Under the pieces are notes generated by a model, which did no database searches, was not told where the DNA came from, and saw only the letters and a list, made by a program, of their open reading frames with translations. From Dehalococcoidia bacterium (GTDB lineage: Bacteria > Chloroflexota > Dehalococcoidia > Lucifugimonadales > JAGWBF01), in assembly GCA_965219565.1 (NCBI GenBank), contig OZ244780.1, positions 174,287 through 238,286 of the forward strand: DNA of 64,000 bases, given 5' to 3'. Below are positions 2,015 to 52,179 of this stretch, piece after piece. Position 1 is the first letter of the stretch; the number at the start of each line of letters is the position of its first letter. Position numbers and translations under genes: made by a program.

Positions 2015-3667
2015 CTAGCGGCTGAAGATGGGGATGGGCAGCTTCCTTATAAAAAACGAAACCACGAACAATGCCAGGCCCACTCCCATCGCCGTTGCAG
2101 CTATCGGAATAGTTCCCGATACCATGTCTGAAGACATGGACGAGAACACGTCCGAGACGATGTCAACGATGCTTGTGGGTATATCCGGTTCATCGATGAT
2201 GATGTTGTTCAACAAACTCTCAATCGCCCTCTTCACCACTATGGCGATTATCAGCGCTATGGCGCCGCTGATGAACAGGACGATGCCTGGGATACGGAAC
2301 AGAGACGCCATGCGAGGATATTGCAAGGCGCCCAGCAGCAGGGTCCCCACCACGACAGCGACTATGGTCAGCGTCAATCCCAGGCGGGTGGTCGCATTAT
2401 AGTCCCTGGCCGGTTCCAGATCGTCCAGAAATTCCTCACGCGTCTTGTCATCGGCCTCGGCGGCGATCTCCACGAGGTCCAGGCGGCGGTCTTCGTCAAG
2501 TTCCTCGTCCACGAACTCTTGGATCGCTTCATCAATGACCGGGCCTGCAATGGTGGCCGCCGTCGTTTTCAGCGCCCCCTTTATGTCTCCCTCGCTAAGC
2601 GGGACCTTGATGGCGGCTTCCTGATCCCGTAGAGCGTTGACGGCTGAGCGCGGGAACGCAGGTTCGGCCTCCAACTCCTCGATAGCACGGTCGAAAATCA
2701 GGTCGGAGACGCTGTCGCTCAGGGACCTAGGGTCACGCAACTCTGGGATGGTCTCAGGAATTCGCCCCTCTTCCAACTCCTTCCACAGAAAGGCCAACTC
2801 CTCCGCCATCTCGACGGCGCCGTCGACCTCCTTGGTTGGAATCTCGTCGACGGTTTCCGAAAGCGCTCTGTTGATGACCGGGGTGGCGATTGTAGATGCC
2901 GCCGTTTTGAGCACACCCTTCGTGTCGACAGCGACAAGGGACTTCTTAATCGCGTCTTCCTGCTTTAGCAGGCCGTCGATGCCTGATTGGAGGAACGTAG
3001 GGTCGGACTCCAGTTCCTCGATTGCTCGATCAAAGATAAAGTCAGCGATGCTGTTGTTAAGGGATGACGGGTCCCGAAGCGCGGGGATAGTTTGAGGAGG
3101 CTCGCCCTCTTCAAGCCCTTTCCAGAGGGCGGCCAGCTCGTCCGCCATCTCTTCGACGTCCTCTACCTCCTGGGTCGGAATCTCGTCGATGCGCCGGTCA
3201 ATGTAGGCGAGGACCGTGGGCTTGATGTTGTCGATGGGCGTAGCCAGTTCAATGAATACCTGAGCCTCTTCCGAGTCCCGCTTCAGGTAGTCTAGTGCGC
3301 CCGTGAGAGCATTCTCGATCTGGCCCTGGAGATAAACGGGTGGAAGGATGCTTCGCGTGACCTCCACGACGTCTTCATGGGGGACTTCAACTCCGGCCAC
3401 CAGATATTCCGTCTGTTTCTCAAACTCCGGGTCTAAGAGGACCTCGTCGTAAATCCGGTCGTAGACCGAATTCTTAGAGATGTTCTCGGCGTAGAAATCG
3501 GCGGACAGGAAATTGCTGCGGAAGCCGCTGACAACCACAAAGCACAGGAACCCGACGATAACGACTACAGCAAGGACTAATCCCAGTATCGGGCGCAAGA
3601 CCGCCAACACGAAAATCAAGCCGCACCTCCCCTTTCCGTCGACGTCTCTCCGCCAGCTTTTCCGCAA
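2015..3667 (-). CDS. Membrane protein of unknown family with an internal 2 x 112-aa tandem duplication
   Basis: 550-aa ORF. N-terminal TM segment (LIFVLAVLRPILGLVLAVVVIVGFLCFVVV), acidic helical middle with repeats at aa 160-271 and 273-384, and 3-4 C-terminal TM helices. Confidence 0.6.
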   Translation of the reverse strand: MRKSWRRDVDGKGRCGLIFVLAVLRPILGLVLAVVVIVGFLCFVVVSGFRSNFLSADFYAENISKNSVYDRIYDEVLLDPEFEKQTEYLVAGVEVPHEDVVEVTRSILPPVYLQGQIENALTGALDYLKRDSEEAQVFIELATPIDNIKPTVLAYIDRRIDEIPTQEVEDVEEMADELAALWKGLEEGEPPQTIPALRDPSSLNNSIADFIFDRAIEELESDPTFLQSGIDGLLKQEDAIKKSLVAVDTKGVLKTAASTIATPVINRALSETVDEIPTKEVDGAVEMAEELAFLWKELEEGRIPETIPELRDPRSLSDSVSDLIFDRAIEELEAEPAFPRSAVNALRDQEAAIKVPLSEGDIKGALKTTAATIAGPVIDEAIQEFVDEELDEDRRLDLVEIAAEADDKTREEFLDDLEPARDYNATTRLGLTLTIVAVVVGTLLLGALQYPRMASLFRIPGIVLFISGAIALIIAIVVKRAIESLLNNIIIDEPDIPTSIVDIVSDVFSSMSSDMVSGTIPIAATAMGVGLALFVVSFFIRKLPIPIFSR

Positions 3668-3740: not shown

Positions 3741-4175
3741 TCAATAGACCAGGGACTGTACCCAGAAAGAGCAGCCCCACAGCTCGGCGCCGCCGATTTT
3801 ATGCTTGCGTCTCGGCTCGGCCTTGACGCACTCGGCCGCAGGCAATCCCTCCAGGATGACCCTACGCATCAGGCTTTTCACGGAAGAGGGACTGTTGGCT
3901 GACACATACTTTTCCAGCTCTGCGTAGGCTTCGGCATCGTCGGACAAGTCAACCAGGACCAGCACCTCCAGGTTATAAACCGACTGGGGGTCCGTTGCCC
4001 GGTATTCCGCCGCCGCCGAGTGGTTGGAGGCCTGGAGGTCCCGTATCACCGCCGCCGGAAACTCCTGGATGCAATCTGGCGGGTGATTGTACACTCGAAG
4101 GCCTTCCACCGTCCCCAATTGGGCCGCCATCTCGTCGACGATGGCTTTGAGTTCCCCCGATGTTGGAGCTACCAT
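3741..4175 (-). CDS. Phage-like neck / tail-completion-like protein (DUF3168-like pattern), hypothetical
   Basis: The ATG at 4175 overlaps the upstream stop (ATGGTAG); product is 144 aa. The pattern L..VEGLRVYNHPP....EFPAAVI resembles tail-completion/neck proteins. The 189-aa extension of ORF 3741..4310 overlaps the upstream gene and was rejected. Confidence 0.5.
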   Translation of the reverse strand: MVAPTSGELKAIVDEMAAQLGTVEGLRVYNHPPDCIQEFPAAVIRDLQASNHSAAAEYRATDPQSVYNLEVLVLVDLSDDAEAYAELEKYVSANSPSSVKSLMRRVILEGLPAAECVKAEPRRKHKIGGAELWGCSFWVQSLVY

Positions 4176-5017
4176 CCCTGACCCCCTACCGGGTTCTTGC
4201 GGTAGGCCGCCAGGAGCAGCGCCACGTCCGGATCCAAGGCTTTGGACACGCCGCCCAGCCCGGTCCGACGCTGTTCCGCTGCTTGGAAGCCTCCGTCCCG
4301 CCGCTTCCACAGGCGCGACGCCTGTATGAGGCAGGCCTCGGCGACCCCGTTGGGGTACACCAGCCTGGCGATAGGTGAGCCGTCAAAGTGAGCCGCTGCC
4401 GCCGTTCCGTTCACACCCCGGACGATAGTCAGTTCGCTGACTGATACTGCAGTGACGTACAATTGCTCATTGTCTATCAAGAGGGTCTGGCCTGCTGATA
4501 GATTCGCGGCGGTGGTGACCGTAATGGCGGTTGCGCCCGCCGACAGTTCCTCTCCTTGGTTCACAGCGGCGCCGGTGTCTTCCGTCACCTCCCTGTATCC
4601 CCACTTGCCGTTCACCTCCACCGTTCGGAGTCCCGTGGGGAAGAGAGTCTTGCTGCCCGCGTCCACATCCACCAGCGCCCTGGTATAGGGGCGGCCCCAG
4701 GGCTTGTCTGGTCGAGCGTTTGGCGGATAGAGCAGATAGTCAGTAACAGCCCATATTGCCTCGAAGGTTCGGTCTCGGTCATCGTCCGTCCTGAGCGAGG
4801 TTACGTTTATCAGGTCGGGGACTCCTAGCTCCTTCCCTCCGTCGCCGTCGAAGAACCGGGACTCCTCCACAACATAGAACCTCCGGTTGCAGTAGTGGTC
4901 GATGAGCCTGGACACTGCCTCCAGAAGGTCCAGCAGCCTGGAATCGTAGGCGGCGCCTGATATGTTCAGGACACCCGCCGATTTCAGAGTCGTCAGGTCA
5001 GCGTAAGCGTTGGTCAT
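4169..5017 (-). CDS. Phage head-tail connector (gp6 / SPP1 gp15-like N-terminus) with unassigned C-terminal half
   Basis: 282-aa ORF. The N-terminus YADLTTLKS...YDSRLLDLLEAVSRLIDHYCNRRFY matches the connector family pattern. Position is downstream of the capsid gene. Confidence 0.6.
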   Translation of the reverse strand: MTNAYADLTTLKSAGVLNISGAAYDSRLLDLLEAVSRLIDHYCNRRFYVVEESRFFDGDGGKELGVPDLINVTSLRTDDDRDRTFEAIWAVTDYLLYPPNARPDKPWGRPYTRALVDVDAGSKTLFPTGLRTVEVNGKWGYREVTEDTGAAVNQGEELSAGATAITVTTAANLSAGQTLLIDNEQLYVTAVSVSELTIVRGVNGTAAAAHFDGSPIARLVYPNGVAEACLIQASRLWKRRDGGFQAAEQRRTGLGGVSKALDPDVALLLAAYRKNPVGGQGW

Positions 5018-5030
5018 AGCAGCCTCCGCG

Positions 5031-5060
5031 CGGCTCCTTCCCGTTTCAGGGAAGGAGCCG
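5031..5060 (-). other. 12-bp GC-rich intercistronic stem-loop without a T-tract
   Basis: CGGCTCCTTCCC-GTTTCA-GGGAAGGAGCCG, between the 150-aa gene and the connector gene. Confidence 0.4.
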
Positions 5061-5104
5061 GTAAATCGGTCTCAAGGTCCTGGAGATGGCGGCGGCGGCC
5101 CGCG

Positions 5105-5557
5105 CTACACTTCTACGTAGAAGATATAGGCGTGGCCGGCAAGTCCGGCGGCTGAGCCTGTGGCCTTGCTGCCGGTGAGGTAGTCGGTCCTCCCCCCTTT
5201 GGCGTCCAGCCGTTGCATGGACTTGCCGTTAACGCCCTTGTGGTCGATGTTGCCTTCCACGCCTTTAGCGGCGTTCACGTCCAGCCCGTCGATCAGATTG
5301 TCCGATGACCGGTTCCCTCGGGAAGCGGAGCCGAAATCTACGGTGCACGCGGCGCTGGAACTGGCAGTTCGGTCTATGACCAACCGGACCACGATGATTG
5401 GACCGGCCTCCGGGTTTCGCCAGGCCAACACCCCTCCTCTGGCATCGGAGCTTCCCAGGGAAGCCTTGGCGCACTTCAGGGCCGCAGGAGCGACGTCCGA
5501 GGTGAGCATGTCCTTCACCTGCTCGGCGAGGGGGCTGTCTTTCGACGGGTTGGCCAC
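5105..5557 (-). CDS. Hypothetical phage structural protein (position of a decoration/accessory head protein)
   Basis: 150-aa ORF lying 42 nt downstream of the capsid gene on the same strand, with host-like codon bias. No family recognised. Confidence 0.45.
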   Translation of the reverse strand: MANPSKDSPLAEQVKDMLTSDVAPAALKCAKASLGSSDARGGVLAWRNPEAGPIIVVRLVIDRTASSSAACTVDFGSASRGNRSSDNLIDGLDVNAAKGVEGNIDHKGVNGKSMQRLDAKGGRTDYLTGSKATGSAAGLAGHAYIFYVEV

Positions 5558-5599
5558 GCGTTTCTCCTTGGGTAGCAGAGTCCCGGTGGGCGCGGCGGT

Positions 5600-6934
5600 C
5601 TACGCCACGCCCGTGATGTTGTACTGCAAAGCTGTGTGGGTTGCGGTGGACCTGCTTCCCGTTCTCTCGGCGAAGGCAATTCGCAGGCTCACCACCATGA
5701 TGTTCTGTCGCTTCTGGATGTCTCGATCAGTTTCGATGGCAAGCTCCCGGCGGAAACCGACCCTCCATTGGGACCGGTTCACGATGAGCAGCCGTCCGGT
5801 GTTTGTCACGTTTCCTGCGTCGGTCACCTGTCCGTCGGTGTCCGCCAGCTTCATCTGCTCCGACACGATGACAGGGATCCCTTCAACGGCACCAAGCTGC
5901 CCCCTTAGCACGGTGGCGTTGGGCCCCAGCTTGTCCAGGGTGCGGAAGGTGTCCACGCTCAAGGCCCGGATGTACGTGTTCACGTCCATGAGGTAGGCCA
6001 GTTCGGACGGCCGCACGCCGTACTTGCCGAGCTTGCCCCGCACTTCGTTGAACATGCCGTCGGACACGGCGGCGCTATGGTCGTTGGCCTGGGCGGTGTT
6101 GTCCACCAGCGGCAGATGAAGCAGCCCGTCGAATCCCAGCAGCCAGTGTCCCTTGCCCACGTCAGACTTTGATATGGTGGCTTCGTCAGCGTTGATGTTG
6201 TTCACCGTCGTCGCATCGCCGTTGAGGACCACGTCGTCGATTACCTCCGCGGCGTTGCGCACCAGCCCGCTGCGGACCTCCTGGGCCATGGCAATCACCG
6301 CGTCCTCGTCCAACGTCAGGGACCAGGGCACCTGGCCCACCAGCTCGTAGGAAGTCAGCGTCTGCTTGGCGGTGTTCAACGCCGTCGCGGTCACGGCCAG
6401 GTTCTCGGTGCCGGGATACCAGTTCACGTCGCCCAGCTGAAGCGGTATCTCGAAGGGGTCCGAGGGCATATCCACCCTGGAGAACAGCGGAGCCACCATG
6501 GTCTCCAGGTTCACGTCCATCCAGAGGGTCGAGGCTTCCTGGGTGGGGACCAGTTCGTCGCCGGAGCCGGCTGTGGTGGAGTCCATGGCCGCTTTCAGGT
6601 TCGACTGCCACTCCTCCAGCATCCGAGGGTTCAGGCCCAGGGGTTGGCGTATCTGGGCGTTGAGCAGACTCCGCATGTAGGCCAGGTCCAGCAAGTCCAG
6701 GCCCTGGTACTTCCCGTAGGGCACCCTGGGCCGGTCCTGCCCGCCGTACTTGCCCAGGAGCGCTTGCTTCTCTCCGTTCTTCCACATCTCCCGGATGCGG
6801 GCAATCTGGGCCGAAACTCGGCTCACCTCTTCCTTGAGCGGAGGAAGCTCACTGTCGATGCGGGCGTTGTAGAACTCCCGCACACCGGCCACTTCCTTCT
6901 TGATTAGGTCCAAGTCTTGAGCGCTGATGGTCAT
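5600..6934 (-). CDS. Major capsid protein, HK97 fold, with N-terminal coiled-coil (delta/scaffold-like) region
   Basis: 444-aa ORF. Coiled-coil N-terminus (KEEVSRVSAQIARIREMWKNGEK), then a typical HK97 core (DELVPTQEASTLWMDVNLETMVAPLFSRVDMPSDPFEIP). Sits directly after the prohead protease. Confidence 0.85.
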   Translation of the reverse strand: MTISAQDLDLIKKEVAGVREFYNARIDSELPPLKEEVSRVSAQIARIREMWKNGEKQALLGKYGGQDRPRVPYGKYQGLDLLDLAYMRSLLNAQIRQPLGLNPRMLEEWQSNLKAAMDSTTAGSGDELVPTQEASTLWMDVNLETMVAPLFSRVDMPSDPFEIPLQLGDVNWYPGTENLAVTATALNTAKQTLTSYELVGQVPWSLTLDEDAVIAMAQEVRSGLVRNAAEVIDDVVLNGDATTVNNINADEATISKSDVGKGHWLLGFDGLLHLPLVDNTAQANDHSAAVSDGMFNEVRGKLGKYGVRPSELAYLMDVNTYIRALSVDTFRTLDKLGPNATVLRGQLGAVEGIPVIVSEQMKLADTDGQVTDAGNVTNTGRLLIVNRSQWRVGFRRELAIETDRDIQKRQNIMVVSLRIAFAERTGSRSTATHTALQYNITGVA

Positions 6935-7003
6935 CTCTCCTCCTTGAGTTTGTGAGTTTTGTCCTTCCGTTTCCCAATGTCTCTCGTTGCTCTTCCGGGA
7001 CGC

Positions 7004-7708
7004 CTAAGCAGCGGGGTGGGCGACAAACCGTAGGCTCTCCACTACTTGCCGCAAGGCGTCGTCCCAGGGGACCCGTTCCATCTCCTCCAGTCCCAGGCTG
7101 GCGTAATAGGCCTCCATCCTTGGCGAGCGGCTCAAGGCCTTCCTCAGGGCGCCCTGGTTGGCCGGAACGGGAGCCGCGCTTATCTCCAGCAGTTCCTGTT
7201 CCAAGAACCGCACACCCAACGCCTTGCCCGTGTCCGCGTCCCTCCGCAGCTCGTACCTGATGGGCCTGAAACCCACCGACACTCCCCGCTGGTAGCCGTC
7301 CCGGTAGAGGTCGGCCACCTCCCGAGCAAAGTCTGTTGGCGCGAACTGCACCCGCGCTACGAGGTTGTTCCCCTCGGCCCACAGCTCCCTCGTGCGGCCT
7401 ATGGCAGGCCTGGTGTAGTCGTGGGCCCACAGGAACACCGGGTTCTTGAGATAGGACTGGAGACGCCATCCCTGCAGCGAAATCACGTCGCCGTGGCGGT
7501 CTACGTCGTCGTTGGAAACGACGAACGCCATTTGCTGCTCTCCGGCTTCCGTTGCTGACGCTTGCGGGAAGGCCGGAGCTGAGACGGATTCACCGGCGGC
7601 CGCGACCGAGGTCCACTTCCGCAAATAGGGCGCGTCGCTGAGTCCCTGCCGGTATGAGTCCAGCGACTCCAACAGCCGCTCCCGTTCCCATTGCTCTATG
7701 TCGTTCAT
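7004..7708 (-). CDS. Prohead maturation protease, HK97 (S78/U35) family
   Basis: 234-aa ORF. FVVSNDDVDRHGDVISLQGWRLQSYLKNPVFLWAHD is typical of the family. GGAAGGGAGG lies upstream of the ATG. Confidence 0.85.
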   Translation of the reverse strand: MNDIEQWERERLLESLDSYRQGLSDAPYLRKWTSVAAAGESVSAPAFPQASATEAGEQQMAFVVSNDDVDRHGDVISLQGWRLQSYLKNPVFLWAHDYTRPAIGRTRELWAEGNNLVARVQFAPTDFAREVADLYRDGYQRGVSVGFRPIRYELRRDADTGKALGVRFLEQELLEISAAPVPANQGALRKALSRSPRMEAYYASLGLEEMERVPWDDALRQVVESLRFVAHPAA

Positions 7709-7757
7709 GCAGGGCGCCTCCCTTCCGATTTAGTTTTCGCTCTTCTGGGGCCAGGGC

Positions 7758-7794
7758 AAAAAAAGAGGGACAGACCCGATTCAGGGTCTGTCCC
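7758..7794 (-). terminator. Intrinsic-terminator-like hairpin in the leader of the protease-capsid module
   Basis: Minus strand reads GGGACAGACCC-TGAATC-GGGTCTGTCCC then TC TTTTTTT G, about 50 nt upstream of the protease ATG. It is a paralogue of the hairpin at 13041..13078. Confidence 0.6.
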
Positions 7795-8028
7795 ATCGGC
7801 GCTGAAGCGGCCGGGCTGGCAATCCGGCCTTTTGTGACGCTCCAAATTCAGGCTACCGCCCGCCGCCCCAAGCGGTCAACGGGCCGATGTCACCTCCGCT
7901 CATGTTCCTGTCCCATCTGGTTTCAGAAAGCCGTCGGGTAGGGTAGAATGCATGCGTTCCGTTATCCGTAGGTTGCCCCTTCTCCCTTCCCTGCCCGTAA
8001 TCCCCCATGAAAGGATTCAACGGCGACA

Positions 8029-9450
8029 ATGACCCGCTTAGTCGTGATTCCTCTGGCATCCATACTGGCCGTGGTCCTTTTGGCCCTGGCCGGGCTGGCC
8101 GTGGCTACAGCCCAAGCCTCCGACCCGGATGTCAGCCCGTTCTACGACTCAAACGGCAACGGGGTGATTGACAGGGACGAGGTTATAACAGCCGTCGCAG
8201 ACTATTTCGCGGGTGTCATCACTAGAGACCAGGTCCTCGTCATCGTCCAGTACTACTTCAGCGGTGAGGCAGTCCCAGATATAGAGGACATCCTGCCGGA
8301 TGAGCCGCCCACCCGGTCCCTGAGTGAGGTCATCGAGGATGTGCGCCCGGCGGTGGTGTACGTCCGAAATCTCAAGGTGGGCAGCGGGAGCGGCGTCATA
8401 TTCAAGACCGAAGGCGAGACGGGGTACGTGATGACCAACTCCCACGTCGTGGACGACATGGAGGAGGGCCTATGGGTCAGGACCGATGACGAAGAGTGGT
8501 ACACTGCCACTTTGCTGCGAGCTGACCCCATCCGCGACCTGGCCGTGGTCACTATTTGCTGCGGTGAGTTCACGGCTTTGGACTTCGCTCAACCAGAGGA
8601 CGTCGAGGTCGGGGATGACGTGGTGGTAATGGGCTACCCGGACCCATTGTCGTATGACACAGCTACGGTGACTAAAGGCATCGTGTCAGCGTTACGATAT
8701 CGCTGGAGCCGAGCTAGCATAATTCTGCAAACTGATGCTGCCAGCAATCCTGGCAACAGCGGCGGCCCCATACTGTCCACTGACGGCCTTATAGCAGGCA
8801 TCGTTCACTCGCGCTCCGAGGAGGGACGTGACGACCGTCCCCGTTTTGGGCTGAGTTATGGAGCGGCTGTGGCGACCATACAGGAGCACATGACTTCGCT
8901 GATTACGCCCGGAGGTGAGTTTATCTTCGAGGATATCTCAGGCGAGCTTCGCCACCAACCCGACGATGACAATATCGTGCAACGCGTATTCAATATGAAC
9001 TATATCGATGGCCGAGCCGATGTAGAGCTAGAGACAACCTTCACGAACCCGTATTCTGCCAGCACACAGCTTTGGTCCTACGGATTAACGGTCCGCTATG
9101 ACCCCGACAGACAAGATGATGAAGACCTGCCCGATCTCAGGATTCTTATTGACAGTGAACGCAGATGGCGGGTACAGATGGCCGTGACTGGGCCTGATGA
9201 GGTTATCGCTAGTGGACAAGCCACCAACATTATGGTCGACGAAGGGGAACGGAACCATATCAAGGTAAGGGCCGTTGGCGATACAGCTCAGTTGTACATA
9301 AACGGCCAGCAGGTTGGGGGCAACATAGACATTAGCTCCGTGCCCCATCCTGGCGACATCGGAGTGTTCACCGGCTATTGGACCGGCAGTGAACGTGACG
9401 GGGCCGTAACTGAGTTTGAGAACTTGCGCGGCAAGCTGCTTGACCAGTGA
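8029..9450 (+). CDS. Secreted trypsin-fold (S1) serine protease with Ca-binding loop and C-terminal beta-rich domain
   Basis: Signal peptide ending ATAQA|SD; DSNGNGVIDRDE loop; catalytic triad contexts TNSHVV, RDLAVV, GNSGGP. An unassigned C-terminal domain of about 190 aa follows. Confidence 0.8.
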   Translation: MTRLVVIPLASILAVVLLALAGLAVATAQASDPDVSPFYDSNGNGVIDRDEVITAVADYFAGVITRDQVLVIVQYYFSGEAVPDIEDILPDEPPTRSLSEVIEDVRPAVVYVRNLKVGSGSGVIFKTEGETGYVMTNSHVVDDMEEGLWVRTDDEEWYTATLLRADPIRDLAVVTICCGEFTALDFAQPEDVEVGDDVVVMGYPDPLSYDTATVTKGIVSALRYRWSRASIILQTDAASNPGNSGGPILSTDGLIAGIVHSRSEEGRDDRPRFGLSYGAAVATIQEHMTSLITPGGEFIFEDISGELRHQPDDDNIVQRVFNMNYIDGRADVELETTFTNPYSASTQLWSYGLTVRYDPDRQDDEDLPDLRILIDSERRWRVQMAVTGPDEVIASGQATNIMVDEGERNHIKVRAVGDTAQLYINGQQVGGNIDISSVPHPGDIGVFTGYWTGSERDGAVTEFENLRGKLLDQ

Positions 9451-9516
9451 AGGGACCACATGCCGCTCTGTGTGCCATCACCACGCCCGCCGCTAGTTGT
9501 TTAATGCCCTTAGCGA

Positions 9517-9987
9517 CTAATAGCACCCCGTCCATTCCACGTCCGACGGCCAGGGTATGAACTCGATCGTGCGGCCGCTTACGGATTTGAATACGGCCAG
9601 GTCATCTCTAACCAGCTCAATCGTGCCCCGACTGTCATCGGAAGTCCAACCCGGCGGCGGATTGTAGTTGCCCAGCATTGGATCGGCCATCCAGACCCGT
9701 CCATCGAAGTGAGCGTCGCGGACACCGCAGTGGACGTATAAAGTGTATGGATACGTGTCTCCGATTTCCGCGCCCGGTCCTTGAGGCGGTCTCTCTAGGA
9801 GTTCTGGGTCCACTGTGGGCATCGGCGCCGGTGTCGCCGTTGGAGATGTTGGTTGAGCGGTCGGGATGGAGGAGCCGTCGCATCCTGCTGTGGCCACTAT
9901 CAAGAAAACCAACAGTCCGCCGACAATGCTAAGCCTCGAAACTCCATGCCGCCTTCTCCCCTTTGATTCTTTCATGGCAGCCCTCAT
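9517..9987 (-). CDS. Lipoprotein, unknown function
   Basis: 156-aa ORF. GGAGGG lies 9 nt upstream of the ATG. Lipobox LIVATAGC is followed by a Pro/Thr-rich linker. Confidence 0.6.
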   Translation of the reverse strand: MRAAMKESKGRRRHGVSRLSIVGGLLVFLIVATAGCDGSSIPTAQPTSPTATPAPMPTVDPELLERPPQGPGAEIGDTYPYTLYVHCGVRDAHFDGRVWMADPMLGNYNPPPGWTSDDSRGTIELVRDDLAVFKSVSGRTIEFIPWPSDVEWTGCY

Positions 9988-10127
9988 CGAATAACCCTCC
10001 AGCTGAGGCGCCCCCCTTGTGGGTCAGGGACACCACCATGAATAAGACGTAGCGGCTCAGGAAAAGGTTCCCGGTGGAGGAGAACTTTTCACCCGCGGGC
10101 GGTTCCTTCTCCACATTCTCATTGTAG

Positions 10128-11375
10128 CTAAACGGCCCTCGGCCCGTCGCCCCAGGGCACGTCGGGCATGTTTCTGCTCCGGCGCACCTCGTTTATCGTG
10201 AGGACTCCCCGGTCCAGCAGCAGCGCTTCGCGGTTTGCCCGGTCGTTCTCGTCCTCCTTTAGCGCCTCGATGTCGGCCAGGTCGAACTCCACCCTTACGC
10301 CAGAGTGGCCCAGCATGGGAAGCAGCTTCTCGTTGATATGCTCCTCCAGGAACTTCATCTCCGGAATCATGGTGTTGCGCCAGAAGATGCGTTCCGCTGT
10401 GTTGATGTTCGTGAAGGTGGCGTTCTGGTAGTCGGACAGAAGTGGCATAGGGACTCCAAAGGTGCGGCTCACGTCCTCCAGGCTCCAGCGCAGGCCCTGG
10501 ACGAACTCCATCTCCCTGTGGGTGAATCCCAGCGTCTTAATGTCCTTAATAAAGCTGGCTATGGCGGGCCGGTGGGCGTTTCCTGGGCCTCTGAACCGCC
10601 GCTCCCAACGCTGGTAGAAGTCCTCCACCTCGTCGTCGGTCATCCCCTCCTCGGTGGTGAAGATGACATCGGGTTGAGCCGAGTTCCGGAAGAAGTTCCG
10701 GTTGAAGCGCATGGCGTCCGCCCCCATGTCGGCGGATAAACGCAGGGGCGCCATTGGCGACAGCCCGGCGTACTCGTCCATGGGGTTGAAGTAGCGGAAC
10801 CAAATCACCTCGTCTCTCGTATACGGCACAGGCCCTGTCGTTCCCATGTAGACGTATCCTTTGACGTACCGATGTCTGTCTGGCAGCACGCGCATCCGGT
10901 CGGGACGCAGAGGCCAGATTTCCCACCGGCCCTCGTCGTCCGGATCCAGCGCCCAGAAGGCCGAACCCCACAGGCTCAGGTAGGTCTCTGTAGCCCTCCA
11001 TAGGTCGCCCCTGGTGTGCCAGGGGTTCACCCGGTCTATAAGCTGCTGCACCGGGTGGTCAGGACTTACCGGAATCCACCCCGAGGAGCCGTCTCTGGCC
11101 AGCGCGGTAACCCCGGGCCGAGCCAGGGCTTCGCTCCGCACCCGAATTGCCGAGTATACGGGCACGGAGGAAGCGTAGTAGCTCCCGTACACCGTTTTGG
11201 CCCAGTCCTGTCCGACGCCCGAGGTCTCGCTATAGCGGTCCACGTCCACCCGGGAGGTGCGGTTGGCTTTGGCAACGTGCGAGGGACCTAGTCCGTTATC
11301 GCTCTTACCCTGCCTCCGGCCAAGCGCTCCCAGCGCGTGCTGCAACAGATTGGCGGACTTGATTGTGGTTGTCAT
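10128..11375 (-). CDS. Phage portal protein, HK97 family
   Basis: 415-aa ORF downstream of TerL. VPVYSAIRVRSEALARP...LIDRVNPWHTRGDLWRATETYLSLWGSAFWAL is typical of HK97-type portals. Confidence 0.85.
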   Translation of the reverse strand: MTTTIKSANLLQHALGALGRRQGKSDNGLGPSHVAKANRTSRVDVDRYSETSGVGQDWAKTVYGSYYASSVPVYSAIRVRSEALARPGVTALARDGSSGWIPVSPDHPVQQLIDRVNPWHTRGDLWRATETYLSLWGSAFWALDPDDEGRWEIWPLRPDRMRVLPDRHRYVKGYVYMGTTGPVPYTRDEVIWFRYFNPMDEYAGLSPMAPLRLSADMGADAMRFNRNFFRNSAQPDVIFTTEEGMTDDEVEDFYQRWERRFRGPGNAHRPAIASFIKDIKTLGFTHREMEFVQGLRWSLEDVSRTFGVPMPLLSDYQNATFTNINTAERIFWRNTMIPEMKFLEEHINEKLLPMLGHSGVRVEFDLADIEALKEDENDRANREALLLDRGVLTINEVRRSRNMPDVPWGDGPRAV

Positions 11376-11405
11376 GCTTTCCTCCGTTTGATTCTTCTAC
11401 TGCGC

Positions 11406-11504
11406 TTCGCCCAAGGCTAACTGGGGGGTTCGGATACCGTTCGTGCTGAGCTTGTCGAAGCACACCACCCCGAGATATCCCTTTGATATGTTTCGCCCAA
11501 GCCT
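11406..11504. repeat. MITE-like ~73-nt insert flanked by 13-nt direct repeats
   Basis: TTCGCCCAAGGCT (11406-11418) and TTCGCCCAAGCCT (11492-11504) flank a segment containing the hairpin GTGCT-GAGCTTGTCGA-AGCAC. It sits exactly at the TerL stop. Confidence 0.45.
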
Positions 11505-12862
11505 CACCCCCACAGCTTCACCCTCCGTCTATATGGCAGGAAGGCCAGCATCAGTGCGTCGGCTCTGTCCGGCGAACGAACTCCCCTCTTGCGCATGTCG
11601 TCCTTGCTCTCCACCAATAGCTGCCCGACGCTGTTGAAGCTGTACTTCAGGGAGGCCAATTCGCCCATCAATTCCTTGTCCGACGGCAGGAACACTTCGC
11701 CGTTGGTGATCATCTGGCGCAGGTTCCAGTATCCCTCCGCTCTAAGATTGGCAAAGCGGCTTGGGTCATGGGCGGCTCGTCCCACGTTCACGCCGTCCAC
11801 CCTGTATCCCAGTTCCTTCAGCCGGTCCACCACACCGGCCCCTATGCCCACCTCGTCCACCACCACGTCCTCCGGGTCCGCCTCTTTGATGGCGGCCACC
11901 ACGAGGCCCGTCAGCTTCATGGTGTCCAGGCCCCGGAATGTCCGCACTGGCTTGACCTGACCGCCCCGGCGCACGAGGATTACGCTTCTGTCGCTGCCGA
12001 ACCGGGCCACGTCTACGGCTACCACCGTCGGCTGGGGTGCGTCGTCCTGCTCCACTGCCCCGCCCGAGACCTTGGCCGCGCCTTCTATTGCGGAGAGAGG
12101 AATCAGCGTGTCCTCCGACTGCTCCGGGAACTCGCCCAACACCCTGGCCTGAAATATGGGGTTGTCCTCCCCCCATATCTTCCGCCGCTGCTCCACCCAT
12201 CTCGCGGTCACCAGGCCGGGCACCGTCTGTGCGCCCCCCGCCACGTTGGGGCTGTCGTAGGCCGATATAGTTATGGTGTGGTACAGCTCCCTGTCCTCGT
12301 GGAACGCCCGGCGGAAGGAGCCGGTGACGGTCGTGGGGTTGCCAATAAGCAGCAACCGGCAGTTCTCCGAGGTCATCAGAGCCTCTATGGCTTCGTAGAT
12401 GGGCTCGGCGACTCCCTCTGCCTCATCCACCACTATGAGCATGTTGGCGCTGTGAAAACCCTGGAACTCATCGGGGCTGTCAGCGGATAGCCCCATGGCG
12501 AAGCTGTCTCTTTCGGGCATCTCCAGGCGGGTGTCCAGCAACTTCCCGCCCAGGTCGAATTTTGCGTTGCGGTAGCGGCGGTGCACCTCTTTCCAGAGGA
12601 TGTGGCGGACCTGCCTGAAGGTCGGAGCCGTGCTCAACGCCACGGCGTGCTCGTGGCAACTCATGAACCAGAGGATTGCCACCGCCGCCGAGAACCCCTT
12701 TCCCAGCCCGTTGCCCGACTTCACCGCCACCCGTTCGTTAGCCGCGACGGCGGTTAGAGCCTCCACCTGCTTTGACCAAGGCTCCACTCCCAGGACTTTC
12801 CGAGCGAAGTAGACGGGGTCTTCCCGGTGCCGCTTGGTGCATTTATATGGCTTCTTGTTCAA
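11504..12862 (-). CDS. Terminase large subunit
   Basis: 452-aa ORF. Walker A SGNGLGKG, Walker B LIVVDEAEG, and a C-terminal nuclease-like VVAVDVARFGSDRS. The start is a TTG with no SD; the first ATG lies after Walker A. Confidence 0.85.
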   Translation of the reverse strand: MNKKPYKCTKRHREDPVYFARKVLGVEPWSKQVEALTAVAANERVAVKSGNGLGKGFSAAVAILWFMSCHEHAVALSTAPTFRQVRHILWKEVHRRYRNAKFDLGGKLLDTRLEMPERDSFAMGLSADSPDEFQGFHSANMLIVVDEAEGVAEPIYEAIEALMTSENCRLLLIGNPTTVTGSFRRAFHEDRELYHTITISAYDSPNVAGGAQTVPGLVTARWVEQRRKIWGEDNPIFQARVLGEFPEQSEDTLIPLSAIEGAAKVSGGAVEQDDAPQPTVVAVDVARFGSDRSVILVRRGGQVKPVRTFRGLDTMKLTGLVVAAIKEADPEDVVVDEVGIGAGVVDRLKELGYRVDGVNVGRAAHDPSRFANLRAEGYWNLRQMITNGEVFLPSDKELMGELASLKYSFNSVGQLLVESKDDMRKRGVRSPDRADALMLAFLPYRRRVKLWG

Positions 12863-12871
12863 CAGGCCGTC

Positions 12872-13027
12872 CTAGGCGCCCAGCGCCGGAGCATGGGTCG
12901 GACTGCTGTCAGAAGGACTGAAGATGAAGCCGCATCCCCGGCATCTATAGACCTCGTTGTCTTTGTCCAGCCGTTTAGCCAGCCTGATCAGGCGGACATC
13001 TCCGCAGCGTCGGCAATGCAATTCCAT
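12872..13027 (-). CDS. 51-aa zinc-ribbon protein (CxxC-x20-CxxC), in frame with TerL
   Basis: Found by hand (too short for the ORF track): MELHCRRCGDVRLIRLAKRLDKDNEVYRCRGCGFIFSPSDSSPTHAPALGA. GGAGGG lies 5 nt upstream of the ATG. Confidence 0.5.
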   Translation of the reverse strand: MELHCRRCGDVRLIRLAKRLDKDNEVYRCRGCGFIFSPSDSSPTHAPALGA

Positions 13028-13040
13028 GTATGCCCTCCAC

Positions 13041-13078
13041 AAAAAAAGGGGGACGGACCCGGAGCCCGGGTCCGTCCC
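13041..13078 (-). terminator. Strong intrinsic-terminator-like hairpin immediately upstream of the Zn-ribbon/TerL RBS
   Basis: Minus strand reads GGGACGGACCCGG-GCT-CCGGGTCCGTCCC then CC TTTTTTT G, followed by GGAGGG and the ATG. Confidence 0.6.
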
Positions 13079-13090
13079 GTTGAATATCAG

Positions 13091-13118
13091 TTTATGGAGC
13101 GGCTTTTTGCGGCGTCAA
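13091..13118 (-). promoter_or_regulatory. Possible sigma70-like promoter (TTGACG-16-CATAAA) feeding the leader terminator
   Basis: Motif match only. The -10 lies about 12 nt upstream of the hairpin. Confidence 0.3.
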
Positions 13119-13160
13119 CAGACAGGTGGCATGGGGTCAAGCATGAGACGTCTGTAGGAT

Positions 13161-13276
13161 TCCCTTCCCCCTTCAAGGGGCAAGGTCAGGATGGAGGTGG
13201 GGAGTCCGCACAAGGTCCGATGGCACATCTGCGCCATACTCCCTCTCCCTCAGGGAGAGGGTTGGGGTGAAGGGAG
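13161..13276. repeat. Two REP-like GC-rich palindromic units (C-arm/G-arm hairpin plus GGGGTGA-type tail)
   Basis: CCCTTCCCCCTTCAAGGGGCAAGG..GGAGGTGGGGAG and CCCTCTCCCTCAGGGAGAGGGTTGGGGTGAAGGG. Related copies lie at 34011, 36391 and 51351. Confidence 0.6.
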
Positions 13277-20459: not shown

Positions 20460-20579
20460 CCCCCGGCAGTGGCCTATTTTCCCACTCCGTCGCCGGAGCA
20501 GTATCGTGAGCGCTGGAGCGTTTCACTTCCGTGTTCGGGATGGGAACGGGTGGGTCCGCACCGCTCAAACCGCCAAGGG
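20460..20579 (-). rRNA. rrf: 5S ribosomal RNA (orphan, not linked to 23S/16S)
   Basis: The minus strand is colinear with bacterial 5S: CCCACCCGUUCCCAUCCCGAACACGGAAGUGAAACGCUCCAGCGC...GGGAAAAUAGGCCACUGCCGGG. Helix I closes between the 5' CUUGGCGG and the 3' CUGCCGGG. Confidence 0.9.
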
Positions 20580-22271: not shown

Positions 22272-25200
22272 TCAAGTCTGACTCACCAGCGTCAGAATCG
22301 TGGCAATCCGCCGCGCCGTGTCTGTGAAGTGCTGCACTTCTTCCGGCAGTAACGCTCTGCCCAGCACGTTGCGCTCCCGATACGACAGCCACTTTTTGAG
22401 GACTTGGTAGCCGCCCAGCTTGTAATTCCAGACTGCGGCGGGGACGTTGCGCCAGTAGGCCCGGTCATTCAAGTAGACGTCGAACGTCGTGGTGCCCAGA
22501 ATCTTCACGGATTCACCCATTGCGGCGGTTTCGTCTGTGGTGTAGGGACGTTCGACGACGCGACCCTGGCCAGGCATGACGGCTTCACCCTGCCCGAAGT
22601 GGCCCCAGCCCGCCGTCATCGCGAAGTCGTCCCCGGCCATGTTGCCGCCATCGGCGGTGGACGGCACAGCGATAGCGGCTATCTCCGGGCGCAGCGTTCC
22701 CTCGGTGACGCCGGGAACGGGTTTGTCGGAGTCAAGCAGCGCGGCCAGCTCACGGCCGCGCGCCGCGGATGCGGCAAGCTCCTCCTCCGCCCCGTCTGTG
22801 TCACCATCGGGCCAGCCAGGGAGGGAGATACGCGGCCACTCCATTCGCAACGCGCTGGCGTTGGCCTCCCGGTAGGCGGGGTCGTGCAGCACGGCCAGGA
22901 CGTGGTGGAACAGGTCCTCCACCCCTGCACCCAGGCGGTTAAGATAGCTTTGGGCAGCTTCCGACAAGTTGGGGCGGTGTCGCTTGTCGTTGTCGGAGAG
23001 ACTCAGTTCGTTGCCCCGAAGCAGTGTAGGAACGCAATAGACTCCGCTGTTCATCTGATTGAGGTCACCCATGTCTGAGATTACTAACGGCGGCGACAAT
23101 TCCGGTCGGGCTTTTCGTTGAAAGACCAACCACAAGTTCCCAGCGAACACGTCCGGCTTGTACTCGGCCCGCTTTTCGTCGAGCAGCTTCGTCTCCGCCT
23201 CCCAATAGAGCCACCGCGTATCAAATGGCCGGTAGGCATAGCGGATAAATCCTGACTCTGTGGGGCCGCCGCGTTTGAGCAGTGTATCCCGCACCGCGCG
23301 AGCTTGGTAACGCGCCGTGGAGTCCATGAAGGACCGATAGCGCCGGGCAAACTCTTCGTGGCTCAGGTGAGAGTTGAAATAGCCCATAACCCGAGTCTTC
23401 AACCGGCCGAGGTCAACGTCTACCAGAAACGAGTCCCGGCTGGTCTTGACTCCCGGAAACGATGTTGGAAACAAGTCGGGCAACGTTGGCCAGTCTTGCC
23501 AACCATCGCCGACCGCCATTCGCCCGAATGGCAGGCCTAGGGGCAGATTCGGCTGAATGCTGTCGTAGAGCGTGTCCGGCTCCCTCTCTGCCGTCTCCGT
23601 CAACTCCTCACGCTTGGACTGGCCCCAGAGGTGGCGGAACCCCACCGTTTCCGCCGGCCCGTGGTCTGCCTTGCGGACCAGAGTGGTGATTGCTGTCCCT
23701 ACCTGGATACCCACCGGGTCCTCCGGCGTCGAGAAGATGCTGGGGTCGGGTGCGCCGTCAGGCGTCGTCTTGCCGGTCTTGTACTTGTCGCCGTTAAGGG
23801 AGTCGATCCGAATGGCGTCGAACGCCTCCAGGTATCGCTCTCGCATTCCAGTGAAGGAAAGGCCATCGAGCCAGGAGTAGTTGGATATGAAGCAGACTAC
23901 GCCCCGGCCTGTCTTTTCCGCGATGCGACGTTCCGCCATCCGGAAGAACCGCACGTACAGGTCGTTCAGCCCCTGACCCTCAGGCCGCCGCACCTGCTTG
24001 GTCGTCCGATAGGCTTCCAACAGCTTCTGTTCCTCATCCACGGCCATGCCCGCGAAGCCGTTGTAGGGTGGATTGCCCAGAATGACCAGGACTGGGGTGT
24101 CCTGCTTCACCCGCTCGGCGCGGTCACGCTCCTCTTCAAGCTCCGGGAACGGCAGAGGCTTCTGCACCGTCGGCTCCCAGCCGGTGAGCGCGTTGGTGAG
24201 GAATATTCCTGCCCGTTCGGCGCCGTCTTCAGACAGCGGCGCATCAAGGTCTTGCATGGTAAGCCCGACCTGTAGGTGGGCCACCACGAACGGAGCGGGC
24301 ATGATTTCGAATCCAAAAACCCGTTTAGTGGCTGCCTGTTTCACCTTGGCTCCGGCGAGCGCTCCAGAGCCCTGCCCCTCCAGGTTAGCTGCGATGCGTC
24401 GCAGGACTTCCGCCAGGTAGGCGCCTGTGCCGCAGCAGGGGTCTAGGACATAGACGTTCTCAGCCGCCAGCCCATCAGCGATTCCGAGATCGTCTTTCAG
24501 GGCCTTGTCTACCCGGGCGACCATGTAGCGCACGACCTCAGGAGGCGTGTACCAGACGCCGAGCTGCTTGCGTAACTCAGGGTCGAACGCTTCCAGGAAG
24601 GGCTCGTAAAAGTACGGGACGGCCTCGCCCTCGTTGAACTTGTCAAAGAAGGCGGCGCGGTCCACACGGTCCAGCGCCGACGCTGTCCAGTCCAACACCT
24701 CGACCAACCCCAACGGCTTCAATTGGCTGGGGGACGATACCTGTTGGAACAACGCCTCTAGTACGGGGACGCGGAGATGCCAAGTAGCGTCGTGCCAGTT
24801 GAAGGAGCTGGTTGGCGGCGGTGTCTGGCGGGCCCAGAGGACCCATGCCGAGAAGACGCCGTAGAAGAGGGTTTGCACCAGCGTCGACCGGAAGAAGGCC
24901 GCACCGCGGTCGCCCTCGAACCGCACACCCAGGGCCTCTTCCAACGCGGACCTTACAGTGTTGAGGGATGGCGCATCACCGGCCGCCTCGACCCGCGCCA
25001 GTCCGTCTCGTGCGTAGGAGGCCAGCAGCCACGCCAGGTCCTTTGGCTCGGCAATGGATGCTTGTTGGGTGAGGGCACGGCACAGGTATTCTCCCAGGCC
25101 GGGGCCCACGGCCTTCGCAAAGGCCCGGGGTTTCTCCAGCCGGGACTCGAACGCTTCCTCGGACTCCGCGAGCCGAAAGGTCTCCAGCTTGACGGGCTGG

Positions 25201-25613
25201 CCGGTCGCATCCTCGCCGAGAAGAACGAAGTCGCGGGTGTTGGTGACCAGCACAAGCCGGTATTTGTTCCAATACTTGCTGACCTGACTGCTCTCGGCGG
25301 TTAACCAAGCGTCGTCACTCGCTGGTTTGACCTCAACGACGCCGCGTTCCGGAAGCTGTCCCTCTCGCGGTTGGCCCTTTTGCACCTGTTTGGCGCCATA
25401 CAGGCCAAAGTCGGGGTGGCCCGCGCCCTGCTGCGCCAGTTGGCTGACGCAGAACACTTTAGGTTTGAGTGTGCCGCCCACGGCATCCAGCAAGTTGGTC
25501 AGTGGGGGGTAGTAGGAAAGTTCATTGGTGCCCCCTCCCGACGCTCGTATTATGCGCAGATAGTTAAGGTAGTCTTCAACGGCTTTCGTCAGTTGAGTGG
25601 TCGTTCTTGGCAT
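22272..25613 (-). CDS. Single-polypeptide Type IIG / Type ISP-like restriction-modification enzyme (PD-(D/E)xK nuclease + gamma-class N6-adenine methyltransferase + C-terminal specificity domain), no helicase
   Basis: 1113 aa. HPDF...x24...VVEVKP nuclease-like motif, SAM motif VLDPCCGTGAYL, catalytic GNPPYNG, and a C-terminal YRPFDTRWLYW signature seen in Type ISP/IIG specificity domains. Confidence 0.75.
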   Translation of the reverse strand: MPRTTTQLTKAVEDYLNYLRIIRASGGGTNELSYYPPLTNLLDAVGGTLKPKVFCVSQLAQQGAGHPDFGLYGAKQVQKGQPREGQLPERGVVEVKPASDDAWLTAESSQVSKYWNKYRLVLVTNTRDFVLLGEDATGQPVKLETFRLAESEEAFESRLEKPRAFAKAVGPGLGEYLCRALTQQASIAEPKDLAWLLASYARDGLARVEAAGDAPSLNTVRSALEEALGVRFEGDRGAAFFRSTLVQTLFYGVFSAWVLWARQTPPPTSSFNWHDATWHLRVPVLEALFQQVSSPSQLKPLGLVEVLDWTASALDRVDRAAFFDKFNEGEAVPYFYEPFLEAFDPELRKQLGVWYTPPEVVRYMVARVDKALKDDLGIADGLAAENVYVLDPCCGTGAYLAEVLRRIAANLEGQGSGALAGAKVKQAATKRVFGFEIMPAPFVVAHLQVGLTMQDLDAPLSEDGAERAGIFLTNALTGWEPTVQKPLPFPELEEERDRAERVKQDTPVLVILGNPPYNGFAGMAVDEEQKLLEAYRTTKQVRRPEGQGLNDLYVRFFRMAERRIAEKTGRGVVCFISNYSWLDGLSFTGMRERYLEAFDAIRIDSLNGDKYKTGKTTPDGAPDPSIFSTPEDPVGIQVGTAITTLVRKADHGPAETVGFRHLWGQSKREELTETAEREPDTLYDSIQPNLPLGLPFGRMAVGDGWQDWPTLPDLFPTSFPGVKTSRDSFLVDVDLGRLKTRVMGYFNSHLSHEEFARRYRSFMDSTARYQARAVRDTLLKRGGPTESGFIRYAYRPFDTRWLYWEAETKLLDEKRAEYKPDVFAGNLWLVFQRKARPELSPPLVISDMGDLNQMNSGVYCVPTLLRGNELSLSDNDKRHRPNLSEAAQSYLNRLGAGVEDLFHHVLAVLHDPAYREANASALRMEWPRISLPGWPDGDTDGAEEELAASAARGRELAALLDSDKPVPGVTEGTLRPEIAAIAVPSTADGGNMAGDDFAMTAGWGHFGQGEAVMPGQGRVVERPYTTDETAAMGESVKILGTTTFDVYLNDRAYWRNVPAAVWNYKLGGYQVLKKWLSYRERNVLGRALLPEEVQHFTDTARRIATILTLVSQT

Positions 25614-51350: not shown

Positions 51351-51385
51351 CCCCTCTCCCTCTGGGAGAGGGCTGGGGTGAGGGC
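51351..51385. repeat. REP-like palindromic unit
   Basis: CCCCTCTCCCTCTGGGAGAGGGCTGGGGTGAGGGC. Confidence 0.6.
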
Positions 51386-52057: not shown

Positions 52058-52179
52058 CTGTTAAGACTGAATGTTGAATCCGTCCCCACTACGTCTGCGT
52101 TTCGAAGTCAGAGGACCGGGTCTGTGGCTGTCGAAGGGGTAGTGTGACGGGAGCCCTCCAGTTCGGGATTATCTAACCG

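Follow-up and report, generated by a model that had tools for sequence, protein, structure and literature searches.

We analysed a 64,000-nucleotide stretch of a Dehalococcoidia genome (contig OZ244780.1 of assembly GCA_965219565.1, positions 174,287 to 238,286; hereafter the window) that carries genes for a phage-like capsid, or head, and for packaging DNA into it. These genes occur as two minus-strand groups between 13118 and 3741 (window coordinates), with all nine open reading frames (ORFs) uninterrupted and a 2.4-kb insert between the groups. The first group, or packaging operon, comprises in order the genes for a Zn-ribbon protein, the large terminase (TerL) and a portal, and the second, or head operon, those for a protease, the capsid protein, a 150-aa protein, an adaptor and a terminator-like protein. 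Matches to PHROG, Pfam and TIGR families upheld the nine-ORF head and packaging inventory on the minus strand given in an earlier reading of the window, made from the letters alone (hereafter the sequence-only reading). The genes, together with one that directly follows them, are:

12872..13027 (−): 51-aa Zn-ribbon protein with two CxxC pairs; start ATG at 13027, with a ribosome-binding site (RBS) in front
11504..12862 (−): large terminase TerL, ATPase and nuclease; PHROG 2, 9.5e-40
10128..11375 (−): HK97-family portal; PF04860 4e-66, TIGR01537 2e-37
7004..7708 (−): S78 prohead maturation protease; PF04586 9.6e-9, phrog_80 5.6e-19
5600..6934 (−): HK97-type major capsid protein; PF05065 9.4e-8, TIGR01554 3.4e-14, phrog_10
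5105..5557 (−): 150-aa jelly-roll protein; AlphaFold2 model with a predicted local distance difference test score (pLDDT) of 90 from a 34-sequence alignment; 82 homologues
4169..5017 (−): head–tail adaptor, gp6-like, with an extra C-terminal domain; phrog_442 2.2e-12
3741..4175 (−): 144-aa neck or tail-terminator-like protein; phrog_17840 'tail terminator' 1.9e-8; start set by orthologues
2015..3667 (−): 550-aa acidic membrane protein with an internal repeat; no family match

Packaging, head and neck proteins

The Zn-ribbon gene, whose start at 13027 agrees with the one proposed earlier, is always the first of the trio it forms with TerL and portal, preceding TerL in 11 loci as well as in L081, L082 and L163 (L-numbers label the related loci and contigs compared with the window). 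Its non-synonymous divergence (dN) was 0 relative to L001 and L002, and the protein is a candidate for a small-terminase substitute or a DNA-recognition partner of TerL. In TerL, the Walker A (GNGLGKG) and Walker B (VVDEAEG) motifs and the nuclease aspartates were invariant across 13 orthologues. At L082 8626-9971, TerL was called as two ORFs (350 and 93 aa) and it is intact in the neighbouring genome L081; the split is either a frameshift or a long-read assembly error. For the portal we found 1022 homologues, and its best solved relative was the portal of the Rhodobacter capsulatus gene transfer agent (GTA), RcGTA (6TBA, 2.2e-21).

The capsid protein has a delta-domain-like N-terminal extension of ~115 aa, Pfam coverage beginning at residue 128. 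Because its structure prediction (12-sequence alignment) reached a pLDDT of 35, its assignment to the HK97 fold is drawn from the hidden Markov model matches only. The same model gave N-terminal helices at low confidence only, and the coiled-coil N-terminus proposed earlier was not confirmed. The neighbouring 150-aa ORF, correctly seen in the sequence-only reading but classed there as unknown, yielded a confident jelly-roll model instead. In Foldseek its best matches were a chain of the cyanophage Pam1 capsid asymmetric unit and the cement proteins, which are trimeric, of the Helicobacter phages KHP30 and KHP40 (probability 1.0, TM 0.44-0.55, weak E values of ~3e-3). Given these fold matches and its position beside the capsid gene, the modelled protein is probably a capsid cement or decoration protein, which would in turn point to a pressurised, DNA-filled shell. 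The adaptor was found in 57-62 of 80 loci examined in detail (see below). For the last gene of the head operon, the earlier start at 4310 was moved to 4175 by its orthologues and its description as DUF3168-like gave way to phrog_17840, there being no Pfam DUF3168 match; the L029 orthologue matches phrog_17840 at 3.6e-22.

The gene for the 550-aa membrane protein lies directly downstream of the last phage-like gene on the same strand in 22 loci, and the genes beyond it differ. The protein is internally duplicated and has a single hydrophobic segment near its N terminus and about three near its C terminus. It is possibly an accessory component, its membership in the system being uncertain. Its topology recalls YhgE/Pip-type phage-receptor proteins, a likeness that no family match backs.

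The G+C content of the phage-like genes (60-64%) may be set beside that of the window (60.4%) and the insert (57.7%); the value for the capsid gene is 62.5% and not ~65% as counted earlier. As stated before, no tail, integrase, lysis or replication gene was seen among the translated ORFs of the window (ten flank ORFs by Pfam, the others by eye), and neither a tRNA gene nor an att-type site occurs in it.

A promoter–hairpin cassette shared by both operons

Both operons open with the same cassette, a promoter-like element (TTGAC-N17-18-TAnnCTGA) followed by a hairpin (GGGACNGACC...GGTCNGTCCC) and a T-run:

13087..13118 (−): packaging-operon promoter-like element; TTGACG, 18 nt, TAAACT(GA)
13041..13078 (−): packaging leader hairpin, GGGACGGACCCGG-GCU-CCGGGUCCGUCCC plus T-run; stem 13078-13050; −29.5 kcal/mol, z −4.9
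7848..7879 (−): head-operon promoter-like element; TTGACC, 18 nt, TAGCCT(GA)
7758..7794 (−): head leader hairpin, GGGACAGACCC-UGAAUC-GGGUCUGUCCC plus T-run; stem 7794-7767; −24.7 kcal/mol, z −6.4

As judged from these motifs, the promoters are of the sigma-70 type and the hairpins have the form of intrinsic terminators; the hairpin element had no Rfam match. When the promoter motif was relaxed to TTGAC-N17-20-TAnnCTGA, it occurred twice in the window (0.03 expected), both times before the two operons. It was also present upstream of the Zn-ribbon gene in L001, L002, L004, L008, L011, L012, L015 and L163, and at the equivalent position upstream of the protease gene in many loci, the promoter-to-hairpin distance being about 10-55 nt. 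A third match to the motif in L009 and L013 was, by eye, the ordinary promoter of a ribosomal protein L25-like gene and outside the system. The pattern common to the two hairpins, GGGAC-N-GACC...GGTC-N-GTCCC, has just these two sites in 64 kb, with zero expected.

Ahead of the protease gene, the hairpin was likewise found in 62 of 73 loci, no more than 450 nt away (median 66 nt; 59 nt separate the end of the stem from the protease start in the window), and ahead of the Zn-ribbon gene in 7 of 11 loci (L001, L002, L004, L015, L017, L018 and L021). An expanded form of the packaging leader in L008, and perhaps L011, retains both arms around a longer insert, and in L012 and L163 the 5′ arm and T-run are kept with only a partial 3′ arm. 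These leaders (L008 4180-4315, L011 2361-2526, L012 5387-5515 and L163 188-342) share the 5′ arm AGGGACGGACCCGG and the T-run, with ~85-100 nt inserted before a 3′ arm that is clear in L008 only, and may form a larger structured leader RNA. Across 76 distinct hairpins, the outer stem GGGAC/GTCCC was nearly invariant, departures being mostly G-U wobbles, and the changes at stem pair 6 (A-T 43, T-G 9, C-G 9, G-C 8, T-A 3) and stem pair 7 (G-C 65, C-G 4, G-T 3, and A-T, T-A and T-G 1 each) indicate that pairing is maintained by compensatory change.

The positions of the two hairpins bear on how the genes behind them could be expressed. Only a few bases separate the end of the packaging-operon T-run from the Zn-ribbon RBS, which leaves no room for a further promoter, and the head-operon terminator cannot belong to another gene because the upstream neighbour is divergent. 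Transcripts from these promoters must therefore pass the predicted terminator to reach the genes of either operon. No antiterminator gene was identified in the 64-kb window.

As a tag for members of the regulon in metagenomes, the bare palindrome proved not specific, with 1 of 120 among the matches listed adjoining the system. When the T-run was also required, four of seven IMG/VR matches preceded a protease gene and a fifth, in L287, preceded a tail operon. Palindromes of the form GGGACAGACC...GGTCTGTCCC were frequent in unrelated soil, gut and freshwater contigs (L165-L284), and in L216, L228 and L275 they occur as arrays with ~48-nt spacing, as if they were an unrelated repeat family. In L029, the segment between the terminator-like and tail-tube genes (12811-13193) contains two ~40-nt copies of an element with the hairpin GGGGCAGACC...GTCTGCCC and no T-run; this could be a variant form of the hairpin in the cassette, or else a repeat local to this site.

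Vertical inheritance and purifying selection

More than 1500 capsid relatives were found in databases, the best 120 clusters all being at least 73% identical and many lying on megabase contigs. A scan of one genome per species identified capsid relatives in 420 species genomes, and the best 80 of these, whose loci were examined in detail, are all Dehalococcoidia, Chloroflexota or SAR202 records with one locus each. The capsid gene is intact in 78 of the 80 loci, and the protease gene adjoins it in 78 of 80 (tblastn). The module is in a syntenic position in many species, with clpC and radA upstream in L061, L068, L074 and L076 and the membrane protein gene followed by cysM and moeB downstream in L001-L015, and the same layout recurs in independent complete chromosomes. 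Among the complete chromosomes with the system is OZ240207.1, which comes from a near-identical relative of the organism sampled in the window. No att-flanked complete prophage version occurred among the relatives seen. In IMG/VR, capsid matches of at least 58% identity were all on 4-15-kb fragments bearing the same cluster, and the next tier, the nearest real phage capsids, was at most 47% identical.

Ratios of non-synonymous to synonymous divergence (dN/dS) between the window and its three closest relatives were as follows:

Capsid: 0.017-0.043
TerL: 0.054-0.069
Portal: 0.055-0.092
Terminator-like protein: 0.018-0.106
Protease: 0.087-0.229
150-aa protein: 0.16-0.19
Adaptor: 0.23-0.29
Core genes MoeB and CysM: 0.012-0.082

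The synonymous divergence (dS) was equal for phage-like and flanking core genes (0.43-0.86 for every gene between the window and L004). Moreover, pairwise capsid identity tracks that of MoeB and CysM (r = 0.95-0.97), and the capsid is 72-75% identical where RadA is 58-64% and ClpC 82% identical. The two operons have evolved with the chromosome by vertical inheritance, and their capsid, protease, portal, TerL and neck genes are under strong purifying selection.

Architecture across lineages

Clustering of all ORFs of the 80 loci distinguished four arrangements, with the protease–capsid pair present in nearly every locus:

Type A (window-like): capsid, 150-aa protein, optional f3 and f49, adaptor, terminator-like protein, membrane protein; TerL and portal upstream
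Type B: capsid, adaptor, terminator-like protein, f9, f7
Type C (many marine lineages): capsid, 150-aa protein, several f3/f16 genes, adaptor
Type D: protease and capsid alone

Family f9 is the major tail (tube) protein (phrog_10528, 3.1e-10), and f7 is a 680-aa protein with no family match whose gene, in sister lineages, comes after the tail-tube gene, behind that for the terminator-like protein. No tail-tube or f7 homologue was found anywhere in the 64-kb window. Profile comparison of the 150-aa protein with families f3, f29 and f16 gave nothing convincing, nor did that of f7 with the membrane protein (best 10.7% probability). In L287, a distant relative with a 56% identical capsid, a third copy of the promoter and hairpin precedes the genes tube-x175-f7, so that the cassette marks out a regulon that takes in the head and packaging operons and, in lineages that have one, the tail operon.

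TerL and portal genes lie at most 10 kb from the capsid gene in only 11 loci, and in three genomes the Zn-ribbon–TerL–portal trio was located ~32, 17 and 25 kb from the protease–capsid pair, amid metabolic and toxin genes. A compact, uninterrupted order of 11 genes was found in L163, a JGI contig: Zn-ribbon, TerL, portal, protease, capsid, 150-aa protein, f3, f49, adaptor, terminator-like protein and membrane protein. The window has this order minus f3 and f49 and plus the 2.4-kb insert. In deeper relatives the gene order is shuffled, the adaptor gene for instance being directly followed by that for the portal. This interleaving with host genes and loss of canonical order fit a very long residence and indicate that the phage-like genes no longer need to travel together.

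Insert, flanks and other features of the window

The material between and around the two operons is of host type. The insert, whose content varies among relatives, and its two genes are:

7709..10127 (no strand assigned): host insert between the operons, with a lipoprotein-like gene and a trypsin-like protease gene; it also houses the head-operon promoter and leader
9517-9987 (−): lipoprotein-like gene
8029-9450 (+): secreted trypsin-like protease; PF13365 8.6e-27

The trypsin-like protease (8029-9450, +) differs from its L001 orthologue by a dS of 0.76 (78% aa identity), compared with 0.04-0.31 (93-99%) for its neighbours, which suggests allelic replacement by recombination or diversifying turnover of a secreted protein. 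Pfam searches of ten flank ORFs bore out the core-gene flanks described earlier (moeB-cysM on one side; an RdhA-like gene, radA and clpC on the other), identifying ThiF/MoeB, PALP/CysM (a pyridoxal phosphate-dependent, cysteine synthase-like protein), an RDH-like Fe-S protein, RadA, DUF429 and ClpC. The remaining ORFs, judged by eye from their translations, include genes of arginine and F420 biosynthesis, recG, ruvB, argS, ABC transport genes and two restriction-modification systems. One of the latter (22272-25613, −) is a 1113-aa Type ISP/IIG enzyme and the other (53944-56266, −) an XcyI-like endonuclease with an adjoining methyltransferase.

A 5S rRNA gene stands alone at 20461-20577 (−), with no 16S or 23S gene within 64 kb. 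Between recG and argS, an HNH/His-Me endonuclease ORF (40855-41745, +) has a G+C content (51%; 0.51 at third codon positions) clearly below that of its surroundings and is possibly a small mobile or homing element. At 51395-52827 (−) lie two tandem paralogues of ~215-220 aa, NIPSNAP-like by eye, each internally duplicated and together containing a 284-nt direct repeat that is 71% identical. The host-type repeat previously placed inside the cluster at 11406-11504 has no second copy in the window; the sole short host repeat found near the cluster is a palindrome resembling repetitive extragenic elements (CCCTCTCCCTCAGGGAGAGGG...), with two intergenic copies at 13241-13270 and 51352-51381.

Discussion

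On balance, we favour the reading that the hosts, Dehalococcoidia, own an ancient, vertically inherited system for forming phage heads and packaging DNA that is gated by antitermination and GTA-like, and of which the locus is the local copy. More tentatively, and with a little less than even confidence, we suggest that much of Dehalococcoidia, including marine SAR202-type lineages, may carry an anciently domesticated capsid and packaging regulon of several operons under one promoter–terminator cassette, as an independently evolved, possibly tail-less or modular GTA or capsid device. To our knowledge, no GTA is known in the phylum Chloroflexota, and full-text literature searches returned no description of this system; the filamentous-virus-like elements of the Dehalococcoides IME1 preprint are unrelated to it. 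The sequence-only reading had already preferred a long-resident, selected module to a recent or decaying prophage, and its functional label for it, GTA-like or tail-borrowing, stands as an interpretation. New relative to that reading are how widely the system occurs across lineages, the separation of its parts by host genes, the probable cement protein and the control cassette common to both operons.

Under the GTA-like reading, both promoters would fire and their transcripts would halt at the leader terminator until a dedicated factor from a gene elsewhere, be it an antiterminator resembling Q or GafZ or a protein that binds the hairpin, allowed both operons to be read through together. Protease and capsid would then assemble around the portal into proheads, the protease cutting off the N-terminal scaffold domain, and TerL, with the Zn-ribbon protein as its partner in place of a classical small terminase, would pump in DNA by headful. 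The jelly-roll protein would cement the expanded shell, and the adaptor and terminator-like proteins would close the portal. Because no replication, integration or self-recognition function occurs in the window, the cargo would be host DNA, as expected of a GTA-like particle, and since the genes are spread over at least 9 kb (up to at least 32 kb in relatives), self-transfer would be unlikely.

Of the known systems compared, the GTAs of Alphaproteobacteria would come closest to this one in their workings. Like RcGTA and the Caulobacter GTA (CcGTA), the system consists of host-owned, phage-derived genes for HK97-type TerL, portal, protease, capsid, adaptor and terminator proteins at a fixed site, without integrase or replication genes and with class-wide vertical inheritance and purifying selection, and the closest solved relative of its portal is that of RcGTA. 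Indeed, the 64 kb hold no integrase, replication or other self-propagation gene, as is expected of a GTA. The functions that would serve delivery (tail) and release (lysis) were not found within the 64-kb window, the tail-tube and f7 genes occurring in sister lineages. The Caulobacter GTA cluster is controlled by GafZ antitermination, and the cassette layout described here resembles the terminators bypassed via GafZ (PMC11150451). Nonetheless, the system differs from RcGTA in its independent origin in another phylum, similarity being at the level of the HK97 family only, and in having no stopper, tape measure, distal tail, hub or megatron genes; orthologues of g1-g15 in order, which define the RcGTA-like family, were not found, the tail half being absent in the window. 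Unlike RcGTA, moreover, its cluster is split into operons interleaved with host genes, its order is shuffled in deeper relatives, each operon has its own copy of the promoter–hairpin cassette, and a 51-aa Zn-ribbon protein takes the place of the small terminase. Its unusual features are the separately gated, dispersed operons, the variable loss of neck and tail genes and the exceptionally conserved capsid.

In lambdoid phages, late genes are controlled by a constitutive late promoter, a nearby terminator and the Q antiterminator. The window is similar in that a predicted promoter is almost directly followed by a strong intrinsic-type terminator before the terminase, portal, protease and capsid genes, and this predicted promoter–terminator layout, one part of a late operon of the lambda Q or GafZ type, is conserved. 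It differs in that no Q-like gene was identified in the window, the cassette is doubled or tripled before separate operons instead of preceding one long late operon, and the hairpin stem is conserved in sequence across deep lineages.

Capsid-forming phage-inducible chromosomal islands (cf-PICIs) are phage satellites that build their own heads and take the tails of a helper. The gene list of the window is nearly the same as theirs (a packaging partner, TerL, portal, protease, capsid and head–tail connectors, with no tail), and we weighed the possibility that it represents a fixed, helper-dependent element of this kind, in which the late antiterminator of an infecting phage opens the leaders and the heads take phage tails and package host or phage DNA, spreading host genes or sabotaging the phage. 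This would suit a gene set that ends at the head–tail interface (adaptor and terminator-like protein) with no tail gene in 64 kb, the purifying selection on neck genes though no tail is encoded nearby, and a promoter-plus-terminator late-operon layout, which is the target of phage antiterminators. We nevertheless regard it as unlikely. Whereas cf-PICIs are mobile, with integrase, att sites, regulatory and replication modules and a patchy distribution, this element is without mobility modules (the window has neither an integrase nor an att site, nor any gene for replication or for sensing a helper), is syntenic at a fixed position and has co-diverged with the chromosome in many species; furthermore, sister lineages encode their own tail-tube and f7 proteins, in L287 under the same cassette, which argues for a self-contained particle, at least ancestrally. 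That the capsid is kept for a use other than DNA transfer, be it as a decoy, as a defence against phages that works by titrating or cutting incoming DNA, or as a nanocompartment for protein or nucleic acid, strikes us as quite improbable, although protease and capsid are the sole pair in nearly every locus, capsid conservation is stronger than expected even for a GTA and in several lineages neck and tail genes were seen next to neither operon. Selection on TerL, whose ATPase and nuclease motifs are intact, and on the portal is as strong as on the capsid, which points to DNA packaging. A cement-type protein suits a pressurised shell, and neither a cargo-type gene nor a member of a known defence family was seen, no search of the PADLOC library having been made. 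Encapsulins offer a parallel, in that they too have an HK97-fold shell protein long kept by the host and protease and capsid are the near-universal core here, but encapsulins are without portal, terminase, prohead protease and neck proteins, all of which are found here under selection; the conserved portal, TerL and protease rule out that the system is an encapsulin.

As the null explanation, the genes could be the remains of a prophage in decay, or belong to a complete prophage that extends beyond the window or was broken up by mis-assembly. They are phage-derived and, like many remnants, lack tail, lysis and integrase modules. Decay, as the sequence-only reading noted, should show as absence in relatives, dN/dS near 1 or scattered frameshifts, and we reject it because each of these came out contrary: the chromosomal position is unchanged among species whose RadA is only ~60% identical, dN/dS is 0.02-0.29 with dS equal to that of core genes, and 78 of 80 capsid genes are intact. 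Truncation or mis-assembly is countered by the core genes on both flanks within the window and by the same layout in independent complete chromosomes. We accordingly give this explanation hardly any weight, and a functional or recently inactivated HK97-like prophage was rejected, there being no contiguous head, tail, lysis and lysogeny modules and no neutral decay.

Several points nonetheless weigh against the GTA-like reading that we prefer. The system is known here from its genes alone, with no particle, packaged DNA or transfer observed, and no tail gene, lysis gene or regulator lies within the 64-kb window. Antitermination control of both operons is inferred from their layout only, and the bare hairpin sequence is not unique, 1 of 120 among the metagenome matches listed having adjoined the system. 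In addition, genes for the adaptor, terminator-like, tail-tube and f7 proteins are patchy near the capsid gene across the 80 loci and in some lineages just five genes, for head and packaging, were seen, so a particle that has a tail and delivers DNA cannot be taken for granted.

We know of only a handful of lineages in which domesticated phage particles that move host DNA have been demonstrated experimentally. Short contigs bearing this cluster are filed as viral in IMG/VR, and a host locus may therefore inflate virus counts for the group. If the system works as inferred, the reduction series among lineages, which begins with a head accompanied by tail-tube and f7 genes and ends with five genes for head and packaging, would reveal which parts selection keeps, and the cassette would provide a simple sequence tag for finding the missing tail, lysis and regulator genes in complete genomes. 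It would, moreover, represent an independent origin of GTAs in Chloroflexota, among uncultured bacteria of the ocean, sponges and sediments, and could shape gene flow and the counts of virus-like particles in the deep ocean, sponges and sediments.

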